NCBI GenBank assembly: GCA_937943575.1
Contig: CALEAV010000007.1
Coordinates: 9,969 to 73,968, forward strand
DNA from: an uncultured bacterium
Lineage (GTDB): Bacteria; Desulfobacterota; Desulfobaccia; Desulfobaccales; 0-14-0-80-60-11
DNA: 64,000 nucleotides
Direction of reading: 5' to 3'
Below are positions 47,973 to 61,021 of the stretch, piece by piece (position 1 is the stretch's first letter; each line of letters begins with the position of its first letter). The notes under the pieces are model-generated. The model did not search any database. It had not been told where the DNA came from and saw only the letters and a program-made list of their open reading frames with translations. The position numbers and the translations under genes are program-made.

Positions 47973-49196
47973 ATGTCGGCATCTCCCCCCCGGCTGTTCC
48001 CCGCCCTGTGCGCCGTGGGCTTTTTGGCCCGCTTCTCCTACGCTCTGGCCCGGAACCCGGTGCTGCCACTCTTTGCCCTGTATTTGGGGGCCGGGCCCGA
48101 AGCCATCGGCCTGGCGGTGGGCATCTCCACCGTCACCGGGATTTTCTTCAAGCTGCCCTCCGGCGCCCTCTCCGATGTCATCGGCCGGCGCCGCACCCTG
48201 CTCATGGGCCTGGTTATCTTCGGGGGGATGCCCTTTGCCTACCTCGTCGTCCATAACTACCCCTCCCTCATCCTCATCCGCTTCCTGCACGGGCTGGCCA
48301 CTGCCATCTACGGCCCGGTGGCCATGGCGGTGGTGGCGGATCTCGCCGGGACCAGAAAAGGCGAATGGCTCTCGTGGTTCTCCTCGGTGACCATCATGGG
48401 GACGCTGGCGGGGGCACCGGTGGGCGGATTTCTGCTCACCTTTCTGACCCAGGGCCAAGGCCCGGTTCTCGCTGACTTCCGCCTGGTCTTCCTGCTGTCC
48501 GGGCTGGCCGGGACCGCTGCCCTCCTTTTGGGTCTGATGGCCTTACGGGGGAAAGAGACGGTGGCACCTCACCCCGGGGCCCTGAAAGAGCGCCTCAGCC
48601 GGTTTTTCTCCGGCATCAAAGAGGTGCTGGGCGACCGGCGGGTGGTCATCACCTCCAACATGGAGGGTTTGCAGAACCTGACGGTGGGGGCCCTGGAGGC
48701 CTTTCTGCCGGTGTATGCGGTCACGGTGGTGGGGCTGAATGAATTTCAGGCAGGTTTGCTGTGGGGCGTCCAGGTGCTCACCACCATCCTGGCCAAGCCC
48801 ATGATGGGGCGCCTGTCCGACCGCTTCGGGCGCAAATTCATCATCGGCGCCGGCATGGTCCTGTGCGCCGGCTCTTTCGCCGCCATCCCCCGGCTCACGT
48901 CTTTCTCCCCGCTCCTTGCCACCGCCTCGGTTTTCGGGCTGGGGGAGGCCTTGGTCACCTCGTCGTGTGCAGCCCTGGTGGCGGATGTATGTCAGGAAAG
49001 ACACTTCGGCGCCGCCATGGGCGCCTTCGGCACCATCTTTGACCTCGGGCATGCCGCCGGCCCCATCCTGGCCGGCCTCCTCCTGGCCCGTCTGGATTAC
49101 CCCGGGGCCTTCGGCCTCCTGGCGGCGGTGCTCGCGTCGGCGGTGCCGGTCTTTGTCCTGGGGGTGAAGGAACCGGGACGCCGGATCGCCCGCTGA
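47973..49196 (+). CDS. MFS transporter
   Basis: About 12 TM segments; GALSDVIGRR and GRLSDRFGRK motif A repeats. Confidence 0.92.
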   Translation: MSASPPRLFPALCAVGFLARFSYALARNPVLPLFALYLGAGPEAIGLAVGISTVTGIFFKLPSGALSDVIGRRRTLLMGLVIFGGMPFAYLVVHNYPSLILIRFLHGLATAIYGPVAMAVVADLAGTRKGEWLSWFSSVTIMGTLAGAPVGGFLLTFLTQGQGPVLADFRLVFLLSGLAGTAALLLGLMALRGKETVAPHPGALKERLSRFFSGIKEVLGDRRVVITSNMEGLQNLTVGALEAFLPVYAVTVVGLNEFQAGLLWGVQVLTTILAKPMMGRLSDRFGRKFIIGAGMVLCAGSFAAIPRLTSFSPLLATASVFGLGEALVTSSCAALVADVCQERHFGAAMGAFGTIFDLGHAAGPILAGLLLARLDYPGAFGLLAAVLASAVPVFVLGVKEPGRRIAR

Positions 49197-49241
49197 CCCG
49201 CCGCAGGGCGAACGGTTCGGGTGAGGGCTCCGGGAGACCGG

Positions 49242-51155
49242 TCAATCCCCCCGGCCGGGCAGGAGCCGGAAGAGCTGCCGCCGGGCGGCGGGCTCCAGGT
49301 GAAACTCGGCGGGCATGGGCGCGGCCAGGGCCCCCTGAAAGGCCCGGCCCAGGGGCGTGGGGGCCAGGCGGCCCCGCTGGCGCATGACCAGGGCTTCAGG
49401 CCCCTCGGACCAGGCGGCGGCCAGCCAGTGGATGCCGGCCTGGGCCAGCCGGGGGCCCAGGGCCTGCACTTGGCGGCCTTCCAGGGGGCCGGCGGTGATC
49501 CCCAGGGCGGCCACCGACTCCTGCCGGCCGAGGCGCCGCAGCTCCCCCAAGCCGGCGGCACTCGCCCCCGCCGGGAGCGTGAGCCCGTAGATCAGGTGGG
49601 GCACCGGGGAGCCGTCGGAGAAGGGCAGGGGAAAGCCGGACAGCTCGCTACCCAAGCCCGGCACCAGGGCCACGGCCCGGGGATGCTCCCGGCGCAGCTC
49701 CCCCAGCATGGCCAAAAGGTGATTCCGCCACACCGGCCAGGTGACCCGGGGGAGCAATCCGGCGGTGGCATCCCCCGGCCCGGGGTCGTGGGGCGGGCCG
49801 AAGAGCTGGAAGAGCACCGCCGGCTCCTCGGCATAACGCCGGGCCAGGATTCCCCAGAAATCCAAAGAGCCCGGATCCGGCAGCGGCGGGTCATAGCACT
49901 CACCCCCGGGGCCCCGGTGCGTGGGCAGCAGGCTGGAGAGGAGGGAGAGCTGGAGGATAGTGTACAGGCCGGCGGCGGCCGCGGTGGCGACGGCGGCATC
50001 CACCGCTTCCAGATAATCCTCGCCGTCGGCCTCGCCCCGGCCCTCCAGGGCCAGATCCTGGGCCAGGGGGAGGCGCACCACCGTGGCCCCCCAGGAGCGG
50101 AGCATCGCCGCCTCCGCCGAGCTCAGGGGGAGTGGGAAGGTGCTGCCCTGGGGGGCGGCCCGCTCCAGCCCCTGCAGGGTGACCCCCCTAAGGAGCCGCA
50201 CCCGGTCCCGTTCATCCACCAGAAAGCGCCCCTCCACCCGCAGCCAGGGAAGGTGGCCGGAGAGGCTGCCGCCGGGCAGGCGGGCGGCTCCGGGCCGGGG
50301 GTGGGGGTTGTCGGCCGGCAGGATCAGGGTCCGCTTCCGGGCCGGCGCCTCTAACGTGGGCCGGCGCCAAGGGATTTTCTTAGCGGCGGGACCCCGGCGG
50401 GGGCGGCCGATGCGGGAGCGCGGCGCCACCCCGGCGGCCCGGGGGCTTTCCCGGTCTTTGGCGGGGATTTTCCAGGGCGCCACCGGGCCGGTGGCCTTGA
50501 CCCGGGGCTTGTCCCGCTGCGGAGCGGGTTTTTGTCCGGCGGGGCGGACCACCCGGGGGCTGAGTTCAGCCGCTCGGCGGCGCTCGGACTGCGGCCGCTT
50601 TTTCTCCGGTTCCCGGGAGGCTGGCAGCTTTTCCCGGCGCCAGTCACCGCCGGGTTTGGCCGACAAGGCGAGTGGCGGCCTCTCTTTTTCCGGCCTCGGC
50701 CCCTGTGGCCGACGCGCCGGGGCCTTTTTGGCCCTGAGGGTCTGAGGCCGCCGTGGCCGGGTTTTGGCGGGTGGCTTGGCCGGCTTTGGACGGCGTTCCC
50801 GACGCTTAGGTTCCCCCGCCTGGCGGGTGGCCAAGGGGGCCATAGTGCGCCGGGCTTCCCGACTGCTCTCCCGGGCCTCCTCCTCCTTGGCTGCTTGCCG
50901 TCTTTCCTGGCGGCGTTGCTGCTGGAGACGCCGCCGGCGGGCCGCCTCCTGCTCCCGGCGGCGCCGCTCCTTCTCCTCCCGCTCCCGGGCCTCCCGCAGA
51001 GCCTCAGCCCGGCGGGCCTCCTGCCGCTGACGCTCCCGGGCCTCCTCCCGGGTCCGGACGGCGGCCTCGGCCCGGCGCTCCTCCTCCCGGCGGCGGGCCC
51101 GCTCCGCCTGCCGTTCTGCCCGGCGGCGCTCTGCCGCTCTGTCGGTGCGGCTCAT
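49242..51155 (-). CDS. Charged coiled coil, Lys/Arg/Pro-rich linker, degenerate GH5 domain
   Basis: R/E-rich helix, then WLRVEG...LLRGVTLQGLE...WGATVVRLPL...YTIL...LFQLFGPPH; no NEP or TEWG motif. Confidence 0.75.
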   Translation of the reverse strand: MSRTDRAAERRRAERQAERARRREEERRAEAAVRTREEARERQRQEARRAEALREAREREEKERRRREQEAARRRRLQQQRRQERRQAAKEEEARESSREARRTMAPLATRQAGEPKRRERRPKPAKPPAKTRPRRPQTLRAKKAPARRPQGPRPEKERPPLALSAKPGGDWRREKLPASREPEKKRPQSERRRAAELSPRVVRPAGQKPAPQRDKPRVKATGPVAPWKIPAKDRESPRAAGVAPRSRIGRPRRGPAAKKIPWRRPTLEAPARKRTLILPADNPHPRPGAARLPGGSLSGHLPWLRVEGRFLVDERDRVRLLRGVTLQGLERAAPQGSTFPLPLSSAEAAMLRSWGATVVRLPLAQDLALEGRGEADGEDYLEAVDAAVATAAAAGLYTILQLSLLSSLLPTHRGPGGECYDPPLPDPGSLDFWGILARRYAEEPAVLFQLFGPPHDPGPGDATAGLLPRVTWPVWRNHLLAMLGELRREHPRAVALVPGLGSELSGFPLPFSDGSPVPHLIYGLTLPAGASAAGLGELRRLGRQESVAALGITAGPLEGRQVQALGPRLAQAGIHWLAAAWSEGPEALVMRQRGRLAPTPLGRAFQGALAAPMPAEFHLEPAARRQLFRLLPGRGD

Positions 51156-51359
51156 GCTGCGGTCCCGTGGCGTGTCAGCGGCTCCGCCGCCACGCACAAC
51201 CCCCAGGAAATCGTAGCCATTTCGGGGCCAGGGAGGACACCCCAGAGGCAAGGCCCTGCTGCGATTCCTGATGGAATTTCATTGAAATTTCCCTTGGATA
51301 AATAAGGACCCCTGCAACGCCTGCATCCCGGCCCCCTTCGATTCCCGGGCTCCTTTCAT

Positions 51360-51623
51360 TTAGGCGACTCCCGGCTCCTCCGGCTCTTCCGGTTCCTCCG
51401 GCAGGCGGGCCCAGACCTGTTCCAGGGCCTCCTGCAGGCGGGGAAAGAGCCGGGCTTCCATCGCCGCCAGCTCCTCATCCAGCTCCCGGGCCCGCTCCGG
51501 GTCCATTTCCCCCACCTTGAGGCGCAAAAGCAGCAGCTCCTCAAAGCGGTCCAGATCCCGGGGCCGGGCCTGGGGGTGGAGGGCCAGCACCGCCGCCCGC
51601 TCCTCGGGAGTGAGGGTCCTCAT
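51360..51623 (-). CDS. Small acidic helical hypothetical protein (87 aa)
   Basis: ATGA overlap with the upstream gene's stop; MRTLTPEERAAVLALHP...EEPEEPEEP. Confidence 0.65.
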   Translation of the reverse strand: MRTLTPEERAAVLALHPQARPRDLDRFEELLLLRLKVGEMDPERARELDEELAAMEARLFPRLQEALEQVWARLPEEPEEPEEPGVA

Positions 51624-54331
51624 CGCCCCAGTTTCCATTCCAGCCGATCCCTAAGAAATCTGAGGGTCAGCCGGTCCAGACGGCACCCTGGAGGAAAACG
51701 GGCCAGGAAGTAGTTGTCCATCAGGTTGGGCTGCGCCGGGTTGATCAGCTCCGGGTGATAGCTGCACCAGGAGGCCGGGTAGCCCAGACCGTCGCGCCGG
51801 CGGTCGCTGGCGTAGCTTTGCCCGTCATAGTCGGCAAACCGCCGGGGGATGGGGCCGCCGGCCCGGGACCGGCGCTTGCGGTTCACTTCGAATAACACCA
51901 GGGGCAGGTCGGCATACAGATCATCCACGCCGCCATTGTCCCGGTCGGAGAAGGCGTGCACGAATTCATGCAAGGGATCCAGGATATAATCCACGGGCGC
52001 ATGCAGGGTCGCCACTCCCGGTTCCCGGGGCCGGCGCCGGTGGTGGTGTCTGGCCCCGTCGTAACGAAATGGGCGGCCCTCTGAGGCAATGTCGTCCACG
52101 GTGTAAGAGGCCGAGCAGCGCCGGTGGCCGGGGGAATGATAGAACACCAGGCAGACGTCGGCCTCAAGCAGCTCCGCCGCCAGATAAGCCCGGACCCGCC
52201 CCCGGTCCGGCTCCATGACGCCGCCGGCCAGCTGCCGGCACAGGGCATGGGCCGCCTCCACTGTGTCCGGGGCGAACCGGGCCGCCACCCGGATATCCAG
52301 GGCGTACGGGTGCAGCAGGGTCTCCCGCTGGCCAAAGAGCGAGCGCAGGGCCTGAGCCACCGCCCGGTGGAAGCGCTCCCGGCGGCTGAGCAGGGGCTCG
52401 GCCTGGAAGCCCCCCCGCCGGGTCTCCACCACCGGATTGGCCAGCAACAGAATGGTAAACCGGCGCTCCGCGGGCTTGCTCTCATCCCCCGGATAGATTT
52501 CGGTAAACTCCCCGGGAGCCGCCTCCACCCGAAGACTCACCGGGTCGCTATGCACCCCGTCCGGCCGCACCACCCAGCACAGCACCTCCCCCAGGGGCAC
52601 CGTGGCCGGCAGCCGGTCCACCAGCAGGAGGTGGGGCAGACTCAGCGTGGGCAGGACGGACACCCGGGCCGCCGGGGTCCAGAACTCCAGGCGGCTCCCC
52701 GGCAGAAAATCATGGCCCTGCACGGCGAAGAAATCCTCCCGCCTCGCCGGACCGGTGCGAATGAGATACCGGCCGCGGCCGCCCCGGGGCCGGTCCAGGG
52801 CGAAGGCCAGCCGGGGGAAGGCCGGCATGGTGTTCAGGGCCGCCCGGACCAGCTCTCCGAACTCGGTGGGCCGGCGGCGGGAGCCGTCCATGATGTAGGT
52901 GCGCCAGGTGACCTGGGCGCCGGTGGGCAGGGTGCGGCTCCCGGTGCCCCGCTCCACCAGAAGCGGCTTATCGGCCCAGGACCAGGCGGTCCAGCCTGCC
53001 AGGCCCGGCCAGACGCCGTCCCGGAAGCGGTGCCGATCCCGGAGATACTGCTCCAGCTCAATCCCCCAGCGGAGTTGAGCCGCCTCGCCCCCCCACTCGG
53101 TGATGAAGATGGGATGGGCCTCCCGGAGGCGGGGAAAGCCGAACCAATAATCCCAATCGGCCCGGGTGGCGGTGCTGCGGCCGGGAGTGGTGTGGTGGTA
53201 GACGTGGGCGGCATAGACGGCGTTGGGCAGGGTGCGGCCGCCGGGCAGGGGCACCGGAAAATGGCGCAGGTTGAGGGCCCAGTCCCAGCCGCTGACAAAG
53301 AGGAGGGCCCGGCCGTGCTCCCGGTGGATCACCTGCTCCAGGCGCCTCACCCAGGTGTGCCAATGGTCCACCCATTCCTTTTCCGTGGCCAGCCGGGGGG
53401 TCACCGCAGCCTGATCGTCGGCCAGGGGGACGTGAGGCTCGTTGAACAGGTCGAAGAGCACCGCCGGCTCCCGCCGGTAGCGGCTGGCCAGCAGCCGCCA
53501 GAGGCGCACGGAGTTCTCCTCCGGCAGGGGCGGCACCCGGTTCACCGAGCCGTCCGCCAGGTGCCCGAAGTCCCGGCGGGTGTCGAACCACTGCAGGTCC
53601 AGGAGCGTATAGGCGCCCTCATGGGCGGCCCACTCAATGATGCGGTCCAGGTTGGCCAGGTAATCCTCCCGGGTGAGGGCCCACTCCTGGTTGAGGGGCA
53701 GGCGGATGACATTGGCCCGCCAATGGCGCACGATCTCCCGGATGAGCTCCCGGGTGATGCCCGCGCCCTCCCGGGAGGTAGGCCGCCTCACCCCGGTGGG
53801 ATCGAGAGCCCCCCGGTCGGTGTATTCCATACCGGAGAGGTTCACGCCCCGGAGCACCACCGGGTCGCCGTCCTCGTTCACCAGGCGGTTGCCGTCCACC
53901 CGGAGCCACTTCAAGCTTCCGGAGAGGCGGCGGCGCACCGGCGGCAGGCGGGTGCCCGGGGGGGCCAGGTAGATGGCCGGGGCCTGCCGGAAATCGTGGG
54001 CCGCCAGGCTCTCCTCCTCCCCTCGGCGGCCCGGCGCGGGGCCGTCATAGGCAATGGCCCGGTAGTAAAGGTAAGGATAACGGCGGAGCGCCCGCCAGGC
54101 GGCCTCATCCAGGCGGTAGCGGGCCCGGCCCCGCTTCACCGGGAGGGGCCCTTCGTCCCGGGAGGTGGAGAAATTCTCCGGCCGGCGCCGGTTCGCCAGG
54201 GCGCCGTTGAAGAGCACCGGGTCGGTGGTCACCTCCACCTCGCAGAACTGCCGGTCCGTGGTGATGGTGAAGGCCGGAGGCGGCCCGGTGGGGTCCACGG
54301 TGGGACGCTCAGCCCGGATGCGCACTGCCAT
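51620..54331 (-). CDS. Multidomain protein: N-terminal beta-rich domain, GH5, IPT/Ig-like domain, HExxH metallopeptidase (M64-like)
   Basis: LRGVNLSGMEY, ANVIRLPLN, FDLFNEPH, YAAHVY, PIFITEWG, WTAWSW; C-terminal HEFVHAFSD...DDLY, NLMD. No signal peptide seen. Confidence 0.8.
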   Translation of the reverse strand: MAVRIRAERPTVDPTGPPPAFTITTDRQFCEVEVTTDPVLFNGALANRRRPENFSTSRDEGPLPVKRGRARYRLDEAAWRALRRYPYLYYRAIAYDGPAPGRRGEEESLAAHDFRQAPAIYLAPPGTRLPPVRRRLSGSLKWLRVDGNRLVNEDGDPVVLRGVNLSGMEYTDRGALDPTGVRRPTSREGAGITRELIREIVRHWRANVIRLPLNQEWALTREDYLANLDRIIEWAAHEGAYTLLDLQWFDTRRDFGHLADGSVNRVPPLPEENSVRLWRLLASRYRREPAVLFDLFNEPHVPLADDQAAVTPRLATEKEWVDHWHTWVRRLEQVIHREHGRALLFVSGWDWALNLRHFPVPLPGGRTLPNAVYAAHVYHHTTPGRSTATRADWDYWFGFPRLREAHPIFITEWGGEAAQLRWGIELEQYLRDRHRFRDGVWPGLAGWTAWSWADKPLLVERGTGSRTLPTGAQVTWRTYIMDGSRRRPTEFGELVRAALNTMPAFPRLAFALDRPRGGRGRYLIRTGPARREDFFAVQGHDFLPGSRLEFWTPAARVSVLPTLSLPHLLLVDRLPATVPLGEVLCWVVRPDGVHSDPVSLRVEAAPGEFTEIYPGDESKPAERRFTILLLANPVVETRRGGFQAEPLLSRRERFHRAVAQALRSLFGQRETLLHPYALDIRVAARFAPDTVEAAHALCRQLAGGVMEPDRGRVRAYLAAELLEADVCLVFYHSPGHRRCSASYTVDDIASEGRPFRYDGARHHHRRRPREPGVATLHAPVDYILDPLHEFVHAFSDRDNGGVDDLYADLPLVLFEVNRKRRSRAGGPIPRRFADYDGQSYASDRRRDGLGYPASWCSYHPELINPAQPNLMDNYFLARFPPGCRLDRLTLRFLRDRLEWKLGR

Positions 54332-54332
54332 C

Positions 54333-55133
54333 TCAGCCTCCGGCAATTTCCCGGGCCAGCGCCGCCAGGGCCGTGGCCAGCGCACCCAGATGCTCCTCTC
54401 CCGGCATCAGGGGCAGCGCGGCCACCCTGTCTGCCAGGTCCCGGGCCGCCGGGGCCAATTCCGGCAGTCGCCCGGCCAGAGAGGAAAGGCCGTCCACCAC
54501 CCCCTTCACCGCCCCGGCCACTGCCTCCGGGCTTGCCGGCGGGTCCGCCAGGAAGGCCGAGATCCTGGCCAGGGCCGCGGCCGCTTCCTTGGCCGCCGCC
54601 GGGGGAACCTCCCGGGCGAGGGCCTCCTGCAGGGCCTGGGCCGCTTGGAGGATTGCCCCAAGGCCCCGGGTGCGCCCCTCCTCCCACAGCTCCGGGGGGA
54701 GCGGGCGCACCGACAAGGACAGGGTGCTCAGGCTCTGGGCGGGAAAGAGGCCCGGGGCGGCCACCTGCAGGCCGGCCCGGTTCTCCTCCACCTGCAGCGC
54801 CGCCCTGAGGTCCAGACGGGCCTCGGCAATGACCCGGTCCCTCAGGCCCCGGGAGCCGGCCTCCAGGGCCTGGAGCAGGGCCTGGAGGATTTCTTCCACG
54901 GCCACCCCCCGGCGTCGGGCCACGGCCTCTTTCAACTTCTCCCGCACCTCCCCCAGCTGGCCGGCGAGCTTCTCCACCAGCGACTTGAGGCGGGCGTTGT
55001 CCCGCTCCAGGGCCGCCCGCTCGGCTACGGCGGCATCCCGCTCCCGCCTGAGGCTCTGGGCCAGGGCTTCCGCCACCTCGGCCCGCACCTGGGCCAGGGT
55101 GGCCTGGCGCCGGTAGAAGTCCAGCTCCGCCAC
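54333..55133 (-). CDS. Coiled coil, helix/beta-hairpin module, helical tail (hypothetical)
   Basis: GTG start 1 nt after the upstream stop; VEEILQALLQALE...IAEARLDLRAAL...LSTLSLSVRPLPP. Confidence 0.75.
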   Translation of the reverse strand: MAELDFYRRQATLAQVRAEVAEALAQSLRRERDAAVAERAALERDNARLKSLVEKLAGQLGEVREKLKEAVARRRGVAVEEILQALLQALEAGSRGLRDRVIAEARLDLRAALQVEENRAGLQVAAPGLFPAQSLSTLSLSVRPLPPELWEEGRTRGLGAILQAAQALQEALAREVPPAAAKEAAAALARISAFLADPPASPEAVAGAVKGVVDGLSSLAGRLPELAPAARDLADRVAALPLMPGEEHLGALATALAALAREIAGG

Positions 55134-55134
55134 C

Positions 55135-55914
55135 TCACTCCTCCTCAGCCCTGACGGTGGGGAGGAGGCGGAAGGTCATACGCAGGGTGGAGAGGGCTCC
55201 GGGCTCCACCCGGCCTGCCTCCGGGGTGACAAAGCGGGGCTCCGCCTCCCCGGTGCGGGGGGCCTCCAGCACCCCCCGGGCCTCCACCTCCAGGGAGGTG
55301 AGGGCGGCGGTAAACTGCTTCCCCGGCGCCGCCCGGCCCTCCGCCAGGCCCTCCAGCACCCCGGCCAGCTTGCCGGCCAGGTCCGTGGGAAAGACATGCC
55401 CCACCACCCCCCGCTCCGCCAGCCGGTCCTGCAGCCGGGAGATCTCCTCGGCCAGTTTCAGGCGCTCGGCCTGCCAGGTCTGGCGCGCCGCCTCATGCTC
55501 CCGGGTGAGCTGCTCCAGGGCCGCCTTCACCGCCTGGGAGACCTGCCGCTCCACATCCGCCTTGACCTGGGCCAGGTCCTGGAGGGCCTGGTCCCGTTCC
55601 CGCTTCCAGACCTCCGCCACCTCCCTGATGGTCCTGAGGCTCCCCAGCTCCGCCTCCTTGAGGCGCAGCTCCTCCTGGGCCCTGGCCAGGGCGGCCTCCA
55701 GCTCCCGCACCCGGCCCTGGGCCAGCTCCGCACGCTCCCTGAGCTCGGCATTGAGGGCTTCAGTGCGGGCCAGGGCCTGGCGGGTGTCCTGCAGCTCCTT
55801 GGTGGCGGCCTCCAGTTTGAAGGTCAGCTCCCGGCGGGACTGCTCCACCAGGTTCAGCTGGGTGCGGACCTGGGCCAGCTCCAGTTTGACGCGTTCCAGT
55901 TCTTCGGGCGGCAT
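55135..55914 (-). CDS. Long coiled coil plus C-terminal helix/beta-hairpin module (hypothetical)
   Basis: About 175 aa heptad region, then TDLAGKLAGVL...LTSLEVEARGVL...LSTLRMTFRLLP. Confidence 0.8.
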   Translation of the reverse strand: MPPEELERVKLELAQVRTQLNLVEQSRRELTFKLEAATKELQDTRQALARTEALNAELRERAELAQGRVRELEAALARAQEELRLKEAELGSLRTIREVAEVWKRERDQALQDLAQVKADVERQVSQAVKAALEQLTREHEAARQTWQAERLKLAEEISRLQDRLAERGVVGHVFPTDLAGKLAGVLEGLAEGRAAPGKQFTAALTSLEVEARGVLEAPRTGEAEPRFVTPEAGRVEPGALSTLRMTFRLLPTVRAEEE

Positions 55915-55917
55915 GGC

Positions 55918-56565
55918 TTAAGTTCCCGGCCCGCCGCGGTGCTGCAGCACCCGGGCCGTCTCGTCGTCCACCTTCACCAGGGCCCGCAAACTCACCGCCC
56001 CGTCTTCTTCCGCGGTCTGCACAACATACCAGGCCCGGGCGCCGCCGTTGAAGTTCACTGTCACCCGGGGCTCGGGGCGGCCTTGGGCGTCGGTAAACAG
56101 ATACGGCAGGGCCGCGGCCAAGGCCGCCTCCGCCGTCAGCGCCGGGGGGGCGGCGGCCGCTCCCGGGGGCGGCACCGCCACCACCGCCAGCTTCACGGTG
56201 CTGGCCGCCTGGAGGTCATAAGAGAACTGGTTGGTGTAGCGGGCATTCACCGGCTGGGCCCACAACCGGGGCAAGGGCTTCCGGGGCACGCCGGCCACCC
56301 GGGGGGGCTCCGCCTTGGGGGCCGGCTGCTCCAGGGCCAGGGCGATCCTGAGCTCCAGCTCGGTCCGGGGGATTTGGTACCAGGTGGCCTCGAGGCCGTA
56401 CTGGGAGAGCACCGGGTCCTCGTTGATGAGCTTCTGGATCTCGATGGAGTGGCGGTCCAGCTCGGCCTGGGCCCGGCCGATCCCGGAGCCCAGGGCCACC
56501 AACAGCTCCTCCAGAGGCGTGGAGATCAGGTCGGCGATCTGCTGGGCGGGAGTTCCGTTGGGCAT
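55918..56565 (-). CDS. DUF2589-like protein with C-terminal PepSY-like domain
   Basis: PLEELLVALGSGIGRAQAELD...WYQIPRTELEL...FSYDLQAASTVKL..VPPP, then LTAEAALAAA...WYVV...VKVDDETARVL. Confidence 0.7.
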   Translation of the reverse strand: MPNGTPAQQIADLISTPLEELLVALGSGIGRAQAELDRHSIEIQKLINEDPVLSQYGLEATWYQIPRTELELRIALALEQPAPKAEPPRVAGVPRKPLPRLWAQPVNARYTNQFSYDLQAASTVKLAVVAVPPPGAAAAPPALTAEAALAAALPYLFTDAQGRPEPRVTVNFNGGARAWYVVQTAEEDGAVSLRALVKVDDETARVLQHRGGPGT

Positions 56566-56581
56566 GAGGTTCCTCCCGGCG

Positions 56582-57190
56582 TTACGGCGTGCGGGTGACG
56601 GTGGGCGGGCTGGTAAAGGTGTTCACCGTGGTCACCGCCGGCTCCAGGCGGGAGGGCGGCGGCACCGGACGCATCACCGCCCGGAGCACGCTGGCCCCCT
56701 GGGCCTGATAGCTGTATTTGTTGGCGGTGCGGTAGTCCACCGTGCCGGCATGGGCCCGGCTGCGGCCCAGCCCCAGGAAACCCGCGGCCCGGCCCCGGGT
56801 CTCCGTCACCCGCTCCTCCCGCATGGTGATGGAGAGGCGCACCTCGATGGTGGCCTCGGTGAATTGGTAGAAGGTGGGCAGCAGACCCGCCTGGAACATG
56901 CTCATCTTCACCGGCGGGGCGCCGGTGGCGGTCACCCGGGCCCCGGTCACCGGCACCCTCTCCGTGCGGATGCCCCCGGCGCCGTCGGGCACCGTCACCT
57001 CCACGGTGCGCACCTCCGGCTCGATGATCTCCGTGACGTCGGTGAGCACCTCCACCTCGGTGTTCACCAGTGTCTTCATGGTTTCCAGGGAGTTGTGATC
57101 CAGGGCCGCCTGGCCGTCGGCGATGGCCACGGCCAGGTTGCGCACCAGTTCGGCAAAGGGCAGATCCAACAGATCGCGGCCGATGGCCAT
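56582..57190 (-). CDS. DUF2589-like protein, paralog 2
   Basis: GRDLLDLPFAELVRNLAVAIADGQAALD...GLLPTFYQFTEATIEV...YSYQAQGASVLR..RPVPPPSRL. Confidence 0.75.
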   Translation of the reverse strand: MAIGRDLLDLPFAELVRNLAVAIADGQAALDHNSLETMKTLVNTEVEVLTDVTEIIEPEVRTVEVTVPDGAGGIRTERVPVTGARVTATGAPPVKMSMFQAGLLPTFYQFTEATIEVRLSITMREERVTETRGRAAGFLGLGRSRAHAGTVDYRTANKYSYQAQGASVLRAVMRPVPPPSRLEPAVTTVNTFTSPPTVTRTP

Positions 57191-57211
57191 AACGACTCCT
57201 TTGTGCCCCGC

Positions 57212-57841
57212 CTAGCTGATGCTGACGGCTGCCGGCTGCCCCTGCAGCATGGGCAGGCAGTTGATGGTGAGCACCCGGGGCGTCAGACGACTGGGCGGCG
57301 GCACCGGTTTCAGGGTGGTCCGGAGCAGGCTCGAGCCCTCCGCCGAGTAGGAATAGGTGTTGGCAGTCTTGTAATTCACATGGGAGGCAAAGGAGGCGGA
57401 GCCCCAGCCCCAGGAGGCGCTGGCCTCCAGGGAGGCCCCCACCTCAAATTCGCTGCTGCTGGTGGTCTTCTGGGAGATGGACATCTTCACTTCAATGATG
57501 GATTCGGTGAACTGGTAGAAGGTGGGGGAGAGCCCCGCCTGCAGGAGGGTCATGTCCTCCGGGTCCATGCTCTCAAACTTCACCCGGGCGCCGGTGACGA
57601 TGATGGTCTCCCGCTGGGGGTTGCCCTCCTGGTCCCGCACCGTCACCTCCACGGTGCGGAAATCCGGCTCGATGATTTCCTGGATCTCCTGGATGATCTT
57701 CACTTTTTCCCGGGCCAGCATGCGGGCGGTGGACAGCGAGGTGCGGTCCAGGGCCAGTTGGCCCTTGGCGATGGCGAAGGCGAGGTTCATCACCATCTCG
57801 GGAAAGGGCACGTCCAACAGGTCTCTGCCGACACTTCTCAT
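57212..57841 (-). CDS. DUF2589-like protein, paralog 1
   Basis: GRDLLDVPFPEMVMNLAFAIAKGQLALD...GLSPTFYQFTESIIEV...YSYSAEGSSLLRTTLKPVPPPSRL; strong AAGGAGG RBS. Confidence 0.75.
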   Translation of the reverse strand: MRSVGRDLLDVPFPEMVMNLAFAIAKGQLALDRTSLSTARMLAREKVKIIQEIQEIIEPDFRTVEVTVRDQEGNPQRETIIVTGARVKFESMDPEDMTLLQAGLSPTFYQFTESIIEVKMSISQKTTSSSEFEVGASLEASASWGWGSASFASHVNYKTANTYSYSAEGSSLLRTTLKPVPPPSRLTPRVLTINCLPMLQGQPAAVSIS

Positions 57842-58029
57842 ACAACCTCCTTGTCAGTGAGCTGGCCGGACCGCAGGCCCGGAAGAAGGTGAAAGTTCCC
57901 GGAAAAGGGGTCGGGGCGCAGCCGCCCCAGCCCTTTCCCCACCCTCGTCTCCCCCCTGCCGCCGGGTGACGGGGAGTTTGAGAGGAGGGGGCCATTGGCC
58001 CTGCTGCCCTCCCCCCAAAAATTGCAGGT

Positions 58030-60213
58030 TCAGGCCGCCGGCTGGCCCCTCTCCCGGGCCAGGAGCTGCCGCACGGCGTTGAGGGCGAAGTGCTTCTTTA
58101 AGGCCCGGGCCGCCTTGCCCTGGGCGTCCAGCTGCACGCCGCCCACGAAGGACAAAAGCGGGCAGGCCTGAAGAACCTCCCTGCCCCCCGGGGGCATGCC
58201 GATGATGAAGCTGCCGCCCGCCGTGGCCATGAGCACCAGGCCGCCGTGGCGGGCCACGTAATCCTGGAGCAGCCGGGGTACTTCCGGGCCGGCGCGGCCG
58301 TCGGCGGGCCGCACCAGAAAGAGCTCCGGCTCCGGCCCGGCAGAGACCGCCGCACCCTGGCGCCGGGGCTGGCCCCTCAGGGCCAGATGCCGCACCTGCT
58401 CCAGGGTCTCTTCGCCCACCGTCTCCAAGGCCCGCTGCCAGGCCTCCTGGCGGCGCCAGGCGGAAAAGCCCTGGTCAGTGAAGAGCAGACGCACCTGGTG
58501 CAGCGGCGGCAGGGGGATGTGCGGCCACAGGGGGCTGGGCCCCACATACGGCACCCCCAGGGCGGCGCAGGCCAGGTCCAGATCCGGGGCGCCGGTGCCG
58601 GAAAAATCAATGGCCAGGCACATGTGCGCCAGGGCCGGCGCCAGCTCCTCCATAGAGAGGCGGACCACGCTGTCCGGGTCGCCGCCGGGCCGGGGCACCG
58701 CCACCGCCAGCCCGGGGAAGATGCGTTTAAGCAGCACCGCCAGGGGCAGCTCCGGGGGGCTCACCAGCACGTAGCCGATGGTGGCCCGGGGGGCGCCGGG
58801 GAAGAAAGGCGGCAGCCGCACCGGGATGCTCAACTCCTCGCCCCGCCGGAAGGCCTCCTGGCGGATCTGGAGGCTCACCTCCCCGGCCCGGCGCTCCGCC
58901 AGCTTCAGGCTCACCTGCACCCCGGAAGGGAGGGGGGCCAGGGTCTCGGCCACCGCCCCCTGAACCTCCGGGGGCAGGTCCTCCAAGGCCGGGCTCCCCT
59001 CCCCCGCCCGCCAGGTGATGAGGCGGCCGCGCACCGGCGGGCGCCGGGGCGGCGCCTGGCTGAGCACCCGCTCCCACTCCGAGGCGATGCGGTCCCAGCT
59101 GTAGCCCAGGGCGAACTCCCGGGACCGGCGGCTTTTTTCGGCCAGCAGGGCGCGGTCGGCATACAGGGCGCTTAAGGCCGCCACCGCCGCCTCCCGGTCC
59201 ACCAGCCCCCTGACCAGCCCGAATTCATCCACCACCCCGGCCTCCGCCGGCAGGGCGAAGCCATGCCCCGCCACCAGCTCCCGGCTGGCGGTGTAGCCCA
59301 GGGCCAGCGGCACCACCCCGGCGCTGGCGGCCTGGAGGTTGGGGAGCCCGAAGCCCTCCCCCCAGGAGGTGAGGAGGTGCACGTCGGCGGCGGCGTAGAT
59401 CTCCGCCAGCCGCTCCAGGGGGATGCCCCCTGAGGCCCGCATGCGGAAGCCCGGGGTGAAGCGCACCCTGGCCGTCAGCCCCAGGGCGTCGATGTCCTGC
59501 CGCAGGTCGTAGCGATAGAGGTCGCTTCTGGCGGCGTCGTCATCGGGGTCGGCGTGCAGGTGCAGGAGGACATCCGGCTTGTCATGGGCGAAGGCGGCAA
59601 AGATGTCCAACAGGCGGGGCAAAAGTTTGCGGGGTTGGTTGCGGGCGTCGGAAAGCACCACCAAGCGGCCCTCGTAGCCCAGGCGGGCCTTGGCCGCCGC
59701 CTTATCCGGCGGTGGCCGGAAGAGCTCAGTGTCCACCCCGTGGGGGATGTAGGCGGCGGCGATGCCGCAGGCGGCGGAGACCTCCAGGCCGAAACGGCTC
59801 ATGGCCACCGGCAGGTCCGCGGCGGCCAGCACCTTCACCCAGCCGGCGGGCAGGCGGCCTTCGGGGTCGGCCCCGTCCACCGGGTAGTAGTGCACCCAGC
59901 GGGTGCCGGAGAGGTCCAGGTAGCGCTGCACCGGCGGCTCGGTGAGGAAGCTCATCCACCAGATGTCCGCCAGGGTGATGACAAAGTGGGGCTGCAGCCG
60001 GTGGAGATACCCCAAAAGCACGTCGCTGCCGAAGCGGTCCCGGCGGATGGGATGGACGGGAATGCCCTGCCAATACGTGGTGGAGCCCTTAGCCTGCCAG
60101 CCCAGAATCTCCAGACGGTGGCCCCGGCGGGCCAGCCGGCGGCACACCTCCCGGGTCACCCCCCCGAACCCGGAAGGGGTGGTGGGACTGTCAGAGACCC
60201 ACAGAATCCGCAT
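58030..60213 (-). CDS. GT4-type (GT-B) glycosyltransferase with a ~340-aa C-terminal extension
   Basis: MRILWVSDSP..PSGFG, YIPHGVD, RNQPRK, TSWGEGFGLPNLQA, YSWDRIA; GGAGG RBS. Confidence 0.85.
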   Translation of the reverse strand: MRILWVSDSPTTPSGFGGVTREVCRRLARRGHRLEILGWQAKGSTTYWQGIPVHPIRRDRFGSDVLLGYLHRLQPHFVITLADIWWMSFLTEPPVQRYLDLSGTRWVHYYPVDGADPEGRLPAGWVKVLAAADLPVAMSRFGLEVSAACGIAAAYIPHGVDTELFRPPPDKAAAKARLGYEGRLVVLSDARNQPRKLLPRLLDIFAAFAHDKPDVLLHLHADPDDDAARSDLYRYDLRQDIDALGLTARVRFTPGFRMRASGGIPLERLAEIYAAADVHLLTSWGEGFGLPNLQAASAGVVPLALGYTASRELVAGHGFALPAEAGVVDEFGLVRGLVDREAAVAALSALYADRALLAEKSRRSREFALGYSWDRIASEWERVLSQAPPRRPPVRGRLITWRAGEGSPALEDLPPEVQGAVAETLAPLPSGVQVSLKLAERRAGEVSLQIRQEAFRRGEELSIPVRLPPFFPGAPRATIGYVLVSPPELPLAVLLKRIFPGLAVAVPRPGGDPDSVVRLSMEELAPALAHMCLAIDFSGTGAPDLDLACAALGVPYVGPSPLWPHIPLPPLHQVRLLFTDQGFSAWRRQEAWQRALETVGEETLEQVRHLALRGQPRRQGAAVSAGPEPELFLVRPADGRAGPEVPRLLQDYVARHGGLVLMATAGGSFIIGMPPGGREVLQACPLLSFVGGVQLDAQGKAARALKKHFALNAVRQLLARERGQPAA

Positions 60214-60553
60214 GGCCAAGCCTCCAGGAGGGTGAGGGCGGCGGGAAAGCTCGAAAGGAAGGGGGAAAGCCCGGTCTCTTCCGAGGGCCTCAAGCGCACC
60301 CCCATCGTAGCACATCCAAAAAAATAAAAAAATTTTTAATTTTGTTGGATATATTTTCTTTAAATTCAAACGAGTCCCGGCGGAGGAAGGGCCAGGCAGG
60401 GGAGCCCCTTGCCCCTCTCCCTCACCCCTGTCCCCGGAGGCGGGGAAGGGAGAAGGAGGCGCCACCGATCCCACCCTTTCCCGCTCCTCCCCTGCCAAGG
60501 CTGTCTGATGGCAGGGTGTGGCAAAAAGGGGGAGAAATCGGGAGGCACCTGAG

Positions 60554-61021
60554 ATGGAGATCTCCATCCCCGGGTTTGGTGACCTGTCCCTGGCCCATCT
60601 GGTCCTGGACTACAACGGCACCCTGGCCGCCGACGGCCGGCTGCTCCCCGGGGTGGCGCCGCGCCTTGTCCGGCTGGCCCCGAGCCTGGAGGTGCATGTG
60701 CTCACCGCCGACACCTTCGGGGGGGTCAGGGAGGAGTTGGCCGGGCTGCCGGTGAGGGTGACCGTTATTCCCCGGGGGGACGAAGCTCAGGCCAAGGCCG
60801 GGGTTGTCCGGACCCTGGGGGCGGAGCGCACCGCCGCCATCGGCAACGGCCGCAACGACGCCCTGATGCTCTCGGAGGCGGCCCTGGGGGTGGCGGTCCT
60901 GCAGGGGGAGGGCGCCGCCCGGGAGGCTTTGCTGGCCGCCGACGTGGTGGCCCCGGACATCCAGGCGGCCCTGGACCTTTTCCTCCACCCCGCCCGCCTC
61001 CTCGCCACCCTGCGGGCCTGA
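60554..61021 (+). CDS. Soluble P-type ATPase-like HAD hydrolase
   Basis: LVLDYNGTLAADG, LTADTFG, AIGNGRND, RLLATLR. Confidence 0.88.
   Translation: MEISIPGFGDLSLAHLVLDYNGTLAADGRLLPGVAPRLVRLAPSLEVHVLTADTFGGVREELAGLPVRVTVIPRGDEAQAKAGVVRTLGAERTAAIGNGRNDALMLSEAALGVAVLQGEGAAREALLAADVVAPDIQAALDLFLHPARLLATLRA

Follow-up and report, generated by a model that had tools for sequence, protein, structure and literature searches.

An unnamed gene set of bacteria and archaea built around apparent remote relatives of DUF2589

The described systems that come closest to the genes considered here are the small proteins known as Trypco and Pepco and the uncharacterised domain DUF2589 (PF11655). As far as the available account goes, Pepco is a 117-amino-acid (aa) protein with an amphipathic helix, which forms detergent-resistant beta barrels of 9-10 subunits and is activated by the removal of a proline- and charge-rich tail, and it is equated there with Trypco1/2 (10.1101/2025.11.14.688446). 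Trypco1/2 are described as having been defined by their position beside trypsin-like peptidases (PMC7159879), and the Trypco2/Pepco genes as adjoining a trypsin- or caspase-type protease that is fused to a sensor (PMC7159879; 10.1101/2025.11.14.688446). DUF2589 is touched on only in passing in the literature found. This article concerns five adjacent genes at positions 54,333 to 57,841, minus strand, of a 64,000-nucleotide stretch of DNA from an uncultured Desulfobaccales bacterium (contig CALEAV010000007.1; the whole stretch is called the window), for which a first-pass annotation, made from the letters alone, had pointed to both of these systems and had proposed that one helix-strand-hairpin-strand module recurs in all five genes. 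What lies there is a new and unnamed set of families, related to a domain of unknown function and carried in a conserved gene cluster that spans bacteria and archaea.

The first three genes encode what are here called the par-type proteins. Reading along the minus strand, par1 (57212..57841, 209 aa, taken from the list of open reading frames, ORFs) and par2 (56582..57190, 202 aa) are long-form subunits, and par3 (55918..56565, 215 aa) is a short-form subunit whose core module occupies residues 1-139 and is followed by a small C-terminal domain. Next come cc1 (55135..55914, 259 aa, likewise from the ORF list), a coiled coil with a reduced module at its C-terminus, and cc2 (54333..55133, 266 aa), recognised through a match to a hidden Markov model (HMM) of the cc1 module, in which a coiled coil and an internal reduced module are followed by a helical C-terminal part. 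The five genes are separated by 21, 16, 3 and 1 bases, which supports an operon layout, and cc1 starts 3 bases past the par3 stop with no clear ribosome-binding site. The best Shine-Dalgarno match of the five, AAGGAGG, belongs to par1, in agreement with the earlier remark that this gene has the strongest ribosome-binding site.

The module and its two classes of protein

From the comparison of their sequences it is certain that par1, par2 and par3 are homologous and carry one module. Par1 and par2 are 50% identical (E 3e-65), par1 matches par3 at E 9e-6, 33 columns are invariant across the three, and the family profiles of the long and short forms align with a probability of 99.7% (E 2.2e-25, hhalign; the percentages given below for profile comparisons are likewise probabilities). 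The motifs by which the module had been recognised are all present in the five proteins: the helix motif P(F/L)xE(L/M)...Q..LD and the strand motifs (F/W)YQ...(I/L)E(V/L) and (Y/F)SY...VPPP in par1-3, LTSLEVEAR and LSTLRMTFRLLP in cc1, and IAEARLDLR and LSTLSLSVRPLPP in cc2. Their wording needs one amendment, in that both par strand motifs require five free positions and not four.

Par2 and par3 have no match in Pfam or NCBIfam, and par1 has sub-threshold rows in Pfam and none in NCBIfam. Relatives are plentiful, with 2480 of 2822 candidates matching par1 at E<=0.001 and 1080 representative clusters (50% identity) matching the short form at E<=1e-3; among the 120 par1 relatives listed there is no Pfam domain, and all the given names are 'hypothetical protein'. 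The nearest par1 relative is 98% identical and sits in a metagenome-assembled genome labelled Syntrophobacterales, a label that is unconfirmed. The par-type proteins are new families: neither Pfam nor NCBIfam has a model for them, and the sources searched give them no name. The extra C-terminal domain of par3 (55918-56148, minus strand, about 75 residues) has the conserved pattern NFN...W(Y/F)V(L/I)Q...VDDETG and no Pfam match; it is also present in 21 other bacterial short forms and is missing from the archaeal short forms fetched.

How, then, do these proteins relate to DUF2589? For this comparison 17 members of the family were fetched, and nine of 301 genomes searched had a match. Profiles of the long form and of long-type DUF2589 align at 92.4% (E 5.1e-7, 175 columns, hhalign) and, in a second comparison, at 91.3% (E 9.6e-7, 147 columns), and the long-form HMM reaches one DUF2589 protein directly at E 8.9e-6, a value to be read against the small size of the set. 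The short form meets short-type DUF2589 at 18.8% (E 1.3e-3) over the helix only, and a language-model lead for par3 in the ESM Atlas scores 0.87 to a cluster of which 72% is PF11655. With the PF11655 model itself none of the five proteins yields a row at E<=1 (gathering threshold 23 bits), and there is none at E<=10 in the six-frame translation of the genome. Common to DUF2589 and the long form are an N-terminal helix with a conserved Q, a first strand and an S/T-rich hairpin with a G-W-G-type tip, and in eight of the nine genomes with a match the DUF2589 genes also stand as adjacent long and short paralogues, where the window has long, long and short. The two differ in their last strand, which ends in VPPP in the par proteins and in a PEGLxR helix in the DUF2589 sequences, and in their surroundings, since the nine DUF2589 neighbourhoods fetched contain no coiled-coil-module or small-domain gene. 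On these results the par-type proteins are a remote sister family of DUF2589 and not members of it. The earlier pointer to DUF2589 is thereby borne out as remote homology (91-92%, E about 1e-6, by profile-profile alignment), though not as membership, the Pfam model not being passed. At the DUF2589 loci (L090-L116) an ORF of 92-99 aa lies between the pair in two of the nine, an ORF of 150-176 aa often lies upstream, and one locus has a third DUF2589-like gene.

The two coiled-coil proteins form the second class. By BLASTP cc1 and cc2 have no similarity to each other (E 0.5), and in Pfam and NCBIfam both have only sub-threshold coiled-coil matches. An HMM of the cc1 C-terminal module finds residues 90-147 of cc2 at E 1.8e-6, and profiles of the cc1 module and cc2 align at 96.1% (E 2.8e-9, hhalign); on this profile evidence the two proteins are homologous through a common module. 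In cc1 the module covers residues 168-259 (55138..55413, minus strand) and consists of a helix, the strand LTSLEVEARGV, a short strand and the strand STLRMTFR, after which comes a P. In cc2 it covers residues 72-155 (54669..54920, minus strand), a position given by profile comparison, and within its own genome it is matched by the merged cc1 and cc2 profile at E 2.3e-16. A query of the ESM Atlas with the cc1 module reaches a best score of 0.79, with no family attached.

The more demanding matter is whether the coiled-coil module and the par-type module belong together. When the cc1 and cc2 families are merged into one profile (A5, 60 sequences) and compared with the short-form core (A4, 44 sequences), they align at 81.1% (E 1.2e-5) over 80 colinear columns, and a repeat with hhalign gives 63.9% (E 6.6e-5, score 32.4). 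The alignment spans the helix, the first strand and the last strand, in the same order as the first-pass annotation had proposed. The background was set by 29 decoy profiles, of which 24 were unrelated gene clusters taken from the same loci and five were reversed alignments, including a reversed par3 profile; their top score is 15.4 (E 0.09) against 32.4 for the true pair, and the profile score climbs with diversity, from 19.8 and 25.9 for single families to 32.4 for the merged profile. A relative from outside the window, P0209, combines a coiled coil with a true short-form module and PASTA, which is to say that it has the architecture of cc1. On account of the merged-profile match, the low decoys and the architecture of P0209, the kinship of the two modules is probable, though short of proven. 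The long form gives no match to the merged coiled-coil profile (E 0.027 or worse), and the small domain, the hydrolase N-terminal domain described below and the par3 C-terminal domain have no relation to the module (E 0.08 or worse), one strong row having been set aside because an untrimmed sequence gave rise to it. The idea of one module in five adjacent genes is in this way certain for par1-3, holds separately for cc1 with cc2, and is probable for the step that connects them; the all-versus-all profile alignment that had been proposed as a check joins long with short, cc1 with cc2 and the merged coiled-coil profile with the short form, and leaves the long form unjoined to the coiled-coil profiles.

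Predicted structures add the arrangement of the elements. The AlphaFold2 model of par1, built on a 13-row alignment, has a predicted local distance difference test (pLDDT) score of 68.7 and places a helix at residues 13-44, with the inserted hairpin spanning 52-91 and the long one 108-140/149-180, such that an N-terminal amphipathic helix is followed by the inserted beta hairpin, the long S/T/A/G-rich hairpin with its WGWG tip, which is modelled at low confidence, and a last strand that runs into VPPP. The model of the cc1 module (42 rows, 106-residue construct, pLDDT 73.6) shows one helix (23-39) and three strands (54-64, 74-76 and 89-96), and its order of secondary structure is compatible with that of par1. 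The long hairpin of par1 (residues 108-180; 57302..57520, minus strand) is drawn from column hydrophobicity over 90 long-form sequences and from alignment with the DUF2589 hairpin. Across these 90 sequences hydrophobic and small polar residues alternate along the distal hairpin, and the tip is hydrophobic and aromatic, with the consensus F-L-F (WGWG in par1).

In its arms of about 30 residues, its alternation and its aromatic tip the hairpin is like the membrane-inserting hairpins of beta-pore-forming proteins, a likeness limited to one element. The top Foldseek rows for the par1 model are stems of such proteins, all at E>1 and with a probability of at most 0.28. No known fold was found: against the Protein Data Bank (PDB) Foldseek gives no match at E<=0.001, and the long-form alignment, used as a profile on PDB sequences, gives a single row at E 1.6. 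A crude scan for classical membrane helices and signal peptides finds no sufficiently hydrophobic stretch in any of the five proteins (the highest 19-residue Kyte-Doolittle mean is 1.25). A complex prediction for par1, the par3 core and the cc1 module scored 0.01, where the mark is 0.32, and weighs neither way.

The suggested kinship with Trypco and Pepco fared less well. The scan of Pfam and NCBIfam models for DUF2589, Trypco1, Trypco2 and Pepco that had been suggested was run and gives no row at E<=1 for the five proteins; PF19631 (gathering threshold 24.2 bits) gives none at E<=1 for the proteins and none at E<=10 in the six-frame genome. With 15 Trypco2 sequences the merged coiled-coil profile aligned at 20.2% (E 1.1e-3), colinear over 78 columns, and with 135 sequences this fell to 7.9% (E 4.3e-3, score 20.7), a decoy scoring 20.9, and kinship with Trypco2 is not supported by sequence. 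The short form meets the Trypco2 profile at 1.2%, and Trypco2 matches occur in two of 201 archaeal genomes. Because the profile link fell to decoy level, Pepco is used here as a functional analogy only. The Trypco2/Pepco proteins, as far as they are described, have the same order of elements as the cc1 model, namely an amphipathic helix, a strand, a short hairpin, a last strand and a proline-rich exit (10.1101/2025.11.14.688446). They differ in being a single protein of about 100-117 aa, where here there are five paralogues of 200-266 aa, and in adjoining a protease, where the neighbours in the window are a GT4 and a GH5 protein with no Pfam peptidase family. By Pfam the window contains no trypsin- or caspase-type protease and no STAND sensor. 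The defence library PADLOC-DB 2.0 has no match for par1-3 or for the GT4 and GH5 proteins, and its matches to cc1 and cc2 are weak ones to long coiled coils, of which the best is JetC (E 2.6e-5); PHROGs and PADLOC together give nothing beyond coiled-coil, PASTA and glycosyltransferase matches.

Conservation, accessory domains and gene neighbours

The counts given here come from a scan of one genome per species, in which 359 pattern matches were found and 305 confirmed; the best 80 of the 305 fall in 70 loci, which were analysed with new gene calls and clustering and with six-frame HMM searches. The record titles of the loci name Actinoplanes, Frankia, Acidobacteriota, Chloroflexia, Burkholderiales, Eremiobacterota, Nitrosopolaris, Halorubrum, Methanosarcinales and Archaeoglobaceae, and Methanosarcina is among the genera that carry the set. 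The recurring core consists of a small domain (52 of the 70 loci), one to several long forms, one short form (64 of 70) and the coiled-coil module (62 of 70), the eight loci that lack the last being mostly short or cut contigs. Where a short form is present, the gene for the coiled-coil module follows it directly in 60 of 64 cases, and gene clustering by itself recognises cc1 relatives at 48 of the 70 loci. The order of the window, with small domain, long, long, short and two coiled-coil genes, is found at ten loci, and the archaeal order of long, short, coiled coil and small domain at 12. The set of small-domain, long, short and coiled-coil genes is conserved across bacteria and archaea, and all of its loci are unnamed; it may be an old unit that has spread horizontally and is inherited together. 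Phage records have no match to it, and of 72,556 plasmid records one matches, from Sphaerotilus, in which five consecutive genes are annotated as hypothetical. Within the 2.58-Mb genome of the window, the long, short and coiled-coil profiles each match these five genes only. The small domain has no Pfam name; as a stand-alone gene of 79-148 aa it lies upstream of the long form in Burkholderiales and downstream of cc1 in Methanosarcinales.

Further domains are attached to the module in many relatives. The cc1 relatives of Methanosarcinales, Halorubrum and some bacteria consist of a coiled coil, the module and one to five PASTA domains, often followed by HhH/DUF4332; one Blastocatellia locus has DUF11 repeats after a cc1-type module, a position in which Acidobacteriota have P/T/S-rich tails. 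Among the 150 best short-form representatives there are 43 long proteins (>260 aa), most of which begin with an HhH/DUF4332-type domain, as judged by N-terminal sequence. Ten of the 43 were scanned with Pfam: five have DUF4332, the short form and PASTA, one has the short form and five PASTA domains, one starts with a ricin-type lectin, and one is P0209. Because PASTA and DUF4332 are fused to cc1 relatives and to short forms alike, these accessory domains are common to both module classes. DUF4332 stands before the module in some proteins and after the module and PASTA in others, and no literature was found that pairs it with PASTA. One short-form relative, P0240, continues from DUF4332, the module and PASTA into an alanine/serine-rich coiled coil and a domain like the C-terminal one of ribosomal L7/L12.

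In the window the core is flanked by carbohydrate-active enzymes. Directly upstream of par1 is a GT4 glycosyltransferase (58030..60567, minus strand; Glycos_transf_1 in Pfam, E 2e-6), whose C-terminus carries the small domain of about 90 residues (58048..58326, minus strand), identified from the sequences of relatives. Downstream of cc2 is a GH5 protein of 921 aa (51620..54385, minus strand), with a match to Cellulase (PF00150, E 2.5e-19) and to cellulases of the PDB down to E 6.8e-17; its N-terminal domain of about 130 residues (53942-54325, minus strand) was delimited by comparison with other loci. Counted on the same strand only, GT4 lies directly upstream at 24 of the 70 loci and GH5 downstream at 18, and the archaeal and many Burkholderiales loci have the core with neither. 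Proteins with peptidase domains lie just downstream at three of the 70 loci, and are of M23, papain C1 and matrixin-like type.

Assembly and the alternatives

What might such a set of proteins make? In the explanation preferred here, the subunits encoded by the five genes would fall into two classes, both built around a single small alpha/beta module, in which an amphipathic helix leads to a beta strand, then to a hairpin or insert that varies, and at the end to a strand continuing into prolines. The long form, with its hairpin of about 70 residues, its aromatic tip and its remote DUF2589 kin, would be represented by par1 and par2, the short form by par3, and in cc1 and cc2 a coiled coil would precede a reduced version of the module. 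We infer that the five proteins would assemble side by side through the common module into a mixed beta-sheet oligomer, either a ring or a barrel, with the long forms supplying the bulk and the short and coiled-coil forms serving as adaptors for stalks, accessory domains or enzymes, which here would be the GT4 and GH5 proteins. A single mixed assembly of this kind is proposed because the module is common to the five, the long, short and coiled-coil genes are strictly linked and the operon is tight, and we regard the proposal as evenly balanced between right and wrong. The barrel is favoured because of the amphipathic hairpin and the precedent of Pepco; any membrane or pore role and the ratios of the subunits are likewise inferred.

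Several results weigh against this mixed assembly. Compared through single-family profiles, the cc1 module meets the short form at 1.6-3.5% (E 0.032, 0.012 and 0.017 in three runs), which is weak, and the values for cc2, at 5% (E 0.0079) as a whole and 21.2% (E 0.001, 75 columns) when trimmed to the module, are weak as well. The identity in the merged alignment is 13%, and no HMM-to-sequence search gives a match that crosses from the coiled-coil to the par class. Strand lengths are unlike, the hairpin arms of par1 having 32-33 residues and the cc1 strands 3-11, and both monomer models are of modest confidence. Since DUF4332 can stand before or after the module, a simple membrane topology, N-terminus in and C-terminus out, is disfavoured.

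It is from the first of these results, the near-noise single-family values for cc1 (E 0.012-0.032), the searches that never cross classes and the low identity, that the first alternative takes its support: the likeness of the two modules could be convergence or chance, in which case cc1 and cc2 would be coiled-coil partners from a family of their own, with a C-terminal helix-strand-strand piece that does no more than bind the par proteins or some other target. Set against this are the merged profile, in which helix, first strand and last strand are colinear over 80 columns, the decoys, all 29 of which lie at E 0.09 or worse, and P0209, which pairs the architecture of cc1 with a true short-form module, and we rate convergence as rather unlikely.

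A second alternative, which we hold to be about as doubtful, concerns the neighbours. PASTA and DUF11 domains are usually extracellular, and DUF4332/HhH domains usually cytoplasmic. The five proteins could belong to an envelope or glycan machine, that is to a conduit or anchor for a glycan made by GT4 and trimmed by GH5, or to a device for releasing hydrolases that have no signal peptide. The frequent positions of GT4 and GH5 fit such a role, as do the NAGPA, M23 or LGFP-repeat hydrolases at other loci, the N-terminal domain common to GH5, NAGPA and M23 proteins, the PASTA and DUF11 domains of cc1 relatives and the lack of a classical membrane helix or signal peptide in the crude scan. The loci of archaea and many Burkholderiales that carry the core with neither GT4 nor GH5 speak against it, and so do the DUF4332/HhH fusions, which occur both before and after the module.

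Several paralogues of one fold together with coiled coils are a common plan for polymers, and a cytoplasmic scaffold is the next possibility, one to which we give somewhat less credence than to the two preceding it. Here the repeating unit would be the long form, and ligands, either nucleic acid or glycan, would be tethered by the HhH and PASTA domains of the coiled-coil and short forms. The result of the membrane-helix and signal-peptide scan agrees with this, and HhH/DUF4332 fusions are common, Pfam confirming them in five of the ten proteins scanned; the amphipathic hairpin with its aromatic tip is better suited to a lipid or hydrophobic interface.

Similarly improbable is a suicide pore for defence in the manner of Pepco, with the long forms as a beta barrel, put together in advance, which a neighbouring hydrolase or protease activates on infection, for which one could cite the helix-plus-strands barrel and tail cutting described for Pepco (10.1101/2025.11.14.688446), the alternating hairpin with its aromatic tip and the pore stems that head the Foldseek rows at E>1, the patchy distribution across phyla, the peptidase domains downstream at three loci and an HEFVH motif in the 921-aa neighbour, but which is disfavoured because protease partners and defence-library matches are wanting: the usual partners are GT4 and GH5, the window has neither the protease nor the STAND sensor, PADLOC returns coiled-coil and PASTA noise, and the Trypco2/Pepco link has no Pfam match and a profile score at decoy level.

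Returning to the mixed assembly, its furthest extension would be a so far unrecognised machine of bacteria and archaea, in which one DUF2589-type module builds both a barrel or ring wall, from the long forms, and stalked adaptors, from the short and coiled-coil forms, and which either opens the cell membrane or anchors and releases glycan- and wall-degrading enzymes that have no signal peptide. We consider this extension improbable, and a good deal less likely than the assembly itself. Were it true, DUF2589-like proteins would join Pepco as a second class of self-made beta barrels, one composed of several subunits. DUF2589 in any case gains a context of gene neighbourhoods and a structural idea that can be tested, both families coming as sets of long and short paralogues, and the probable reuse of one module in five adjacent genes, stalked versions included, is a plan seen in multi-subunit rings and shells.

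The flanking genes and other features of the locus

The same-strand run on the minus strand comprises the GT4 gene, par1, par2, par3, cc1, cc2, the 921-aa GH5 gene, an ORF of 92 aa and, as its last gene, a second GH5 protein of 669 aa (49242..51251), which matches Cellulase at E 1.3e-5 (25.3 bits, the cut-off being 23.5). A search for sigma-70-type promoters across positions 49000-61000 gave none. In one run of a sediment metatranscriptome there are contigs that resemble parts of the window at 85-99% and cover 19 of 30 bins; they come from relatives, so that they give no ranking of the genes and no proof of transcription here.

The starts of two flanking genes need adjustment. For the GT4 protein the true start is most likely Met119, at 60213, and is placed there because the relatives begin there, at residues 98-119. 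The true start of the 921-aa GH5 ORF is most likely the ATG at 54331, just past the cc2 stop.

The 921-aa protein consists of its N-terminal domain, the GH5 domain and a C-terminal part that contains the motif HEFVH (51956-51970, minus strand; residues 806-810). A close relative, L005, has HELIH as the counterpart, and the 921-aa protein has no peptidase family match. At other loci its N-terminal domain stands ahead of NAGPA-type glycosidase domains or of M23 peptidase domains, and one Nitrosopolaris protein contains several copies; it has the look of a handle that hydrolases of various kinds have in common. At a Polaromonas locus a matrixin-like HExxHxxGxxH protein with LGFP repeats comes right after cc1. 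The 669-aa GH5 protein begins with about 130 highly charged residues, rich in R, E, A and Q, followed by a stretch rich in proline and arginine and then by the catalytic domain. The spacer between the GT4 gene and par1 (57842-58029, 188 bases) is G-rich and holds an imperfect, GC-rich inverted repeat.

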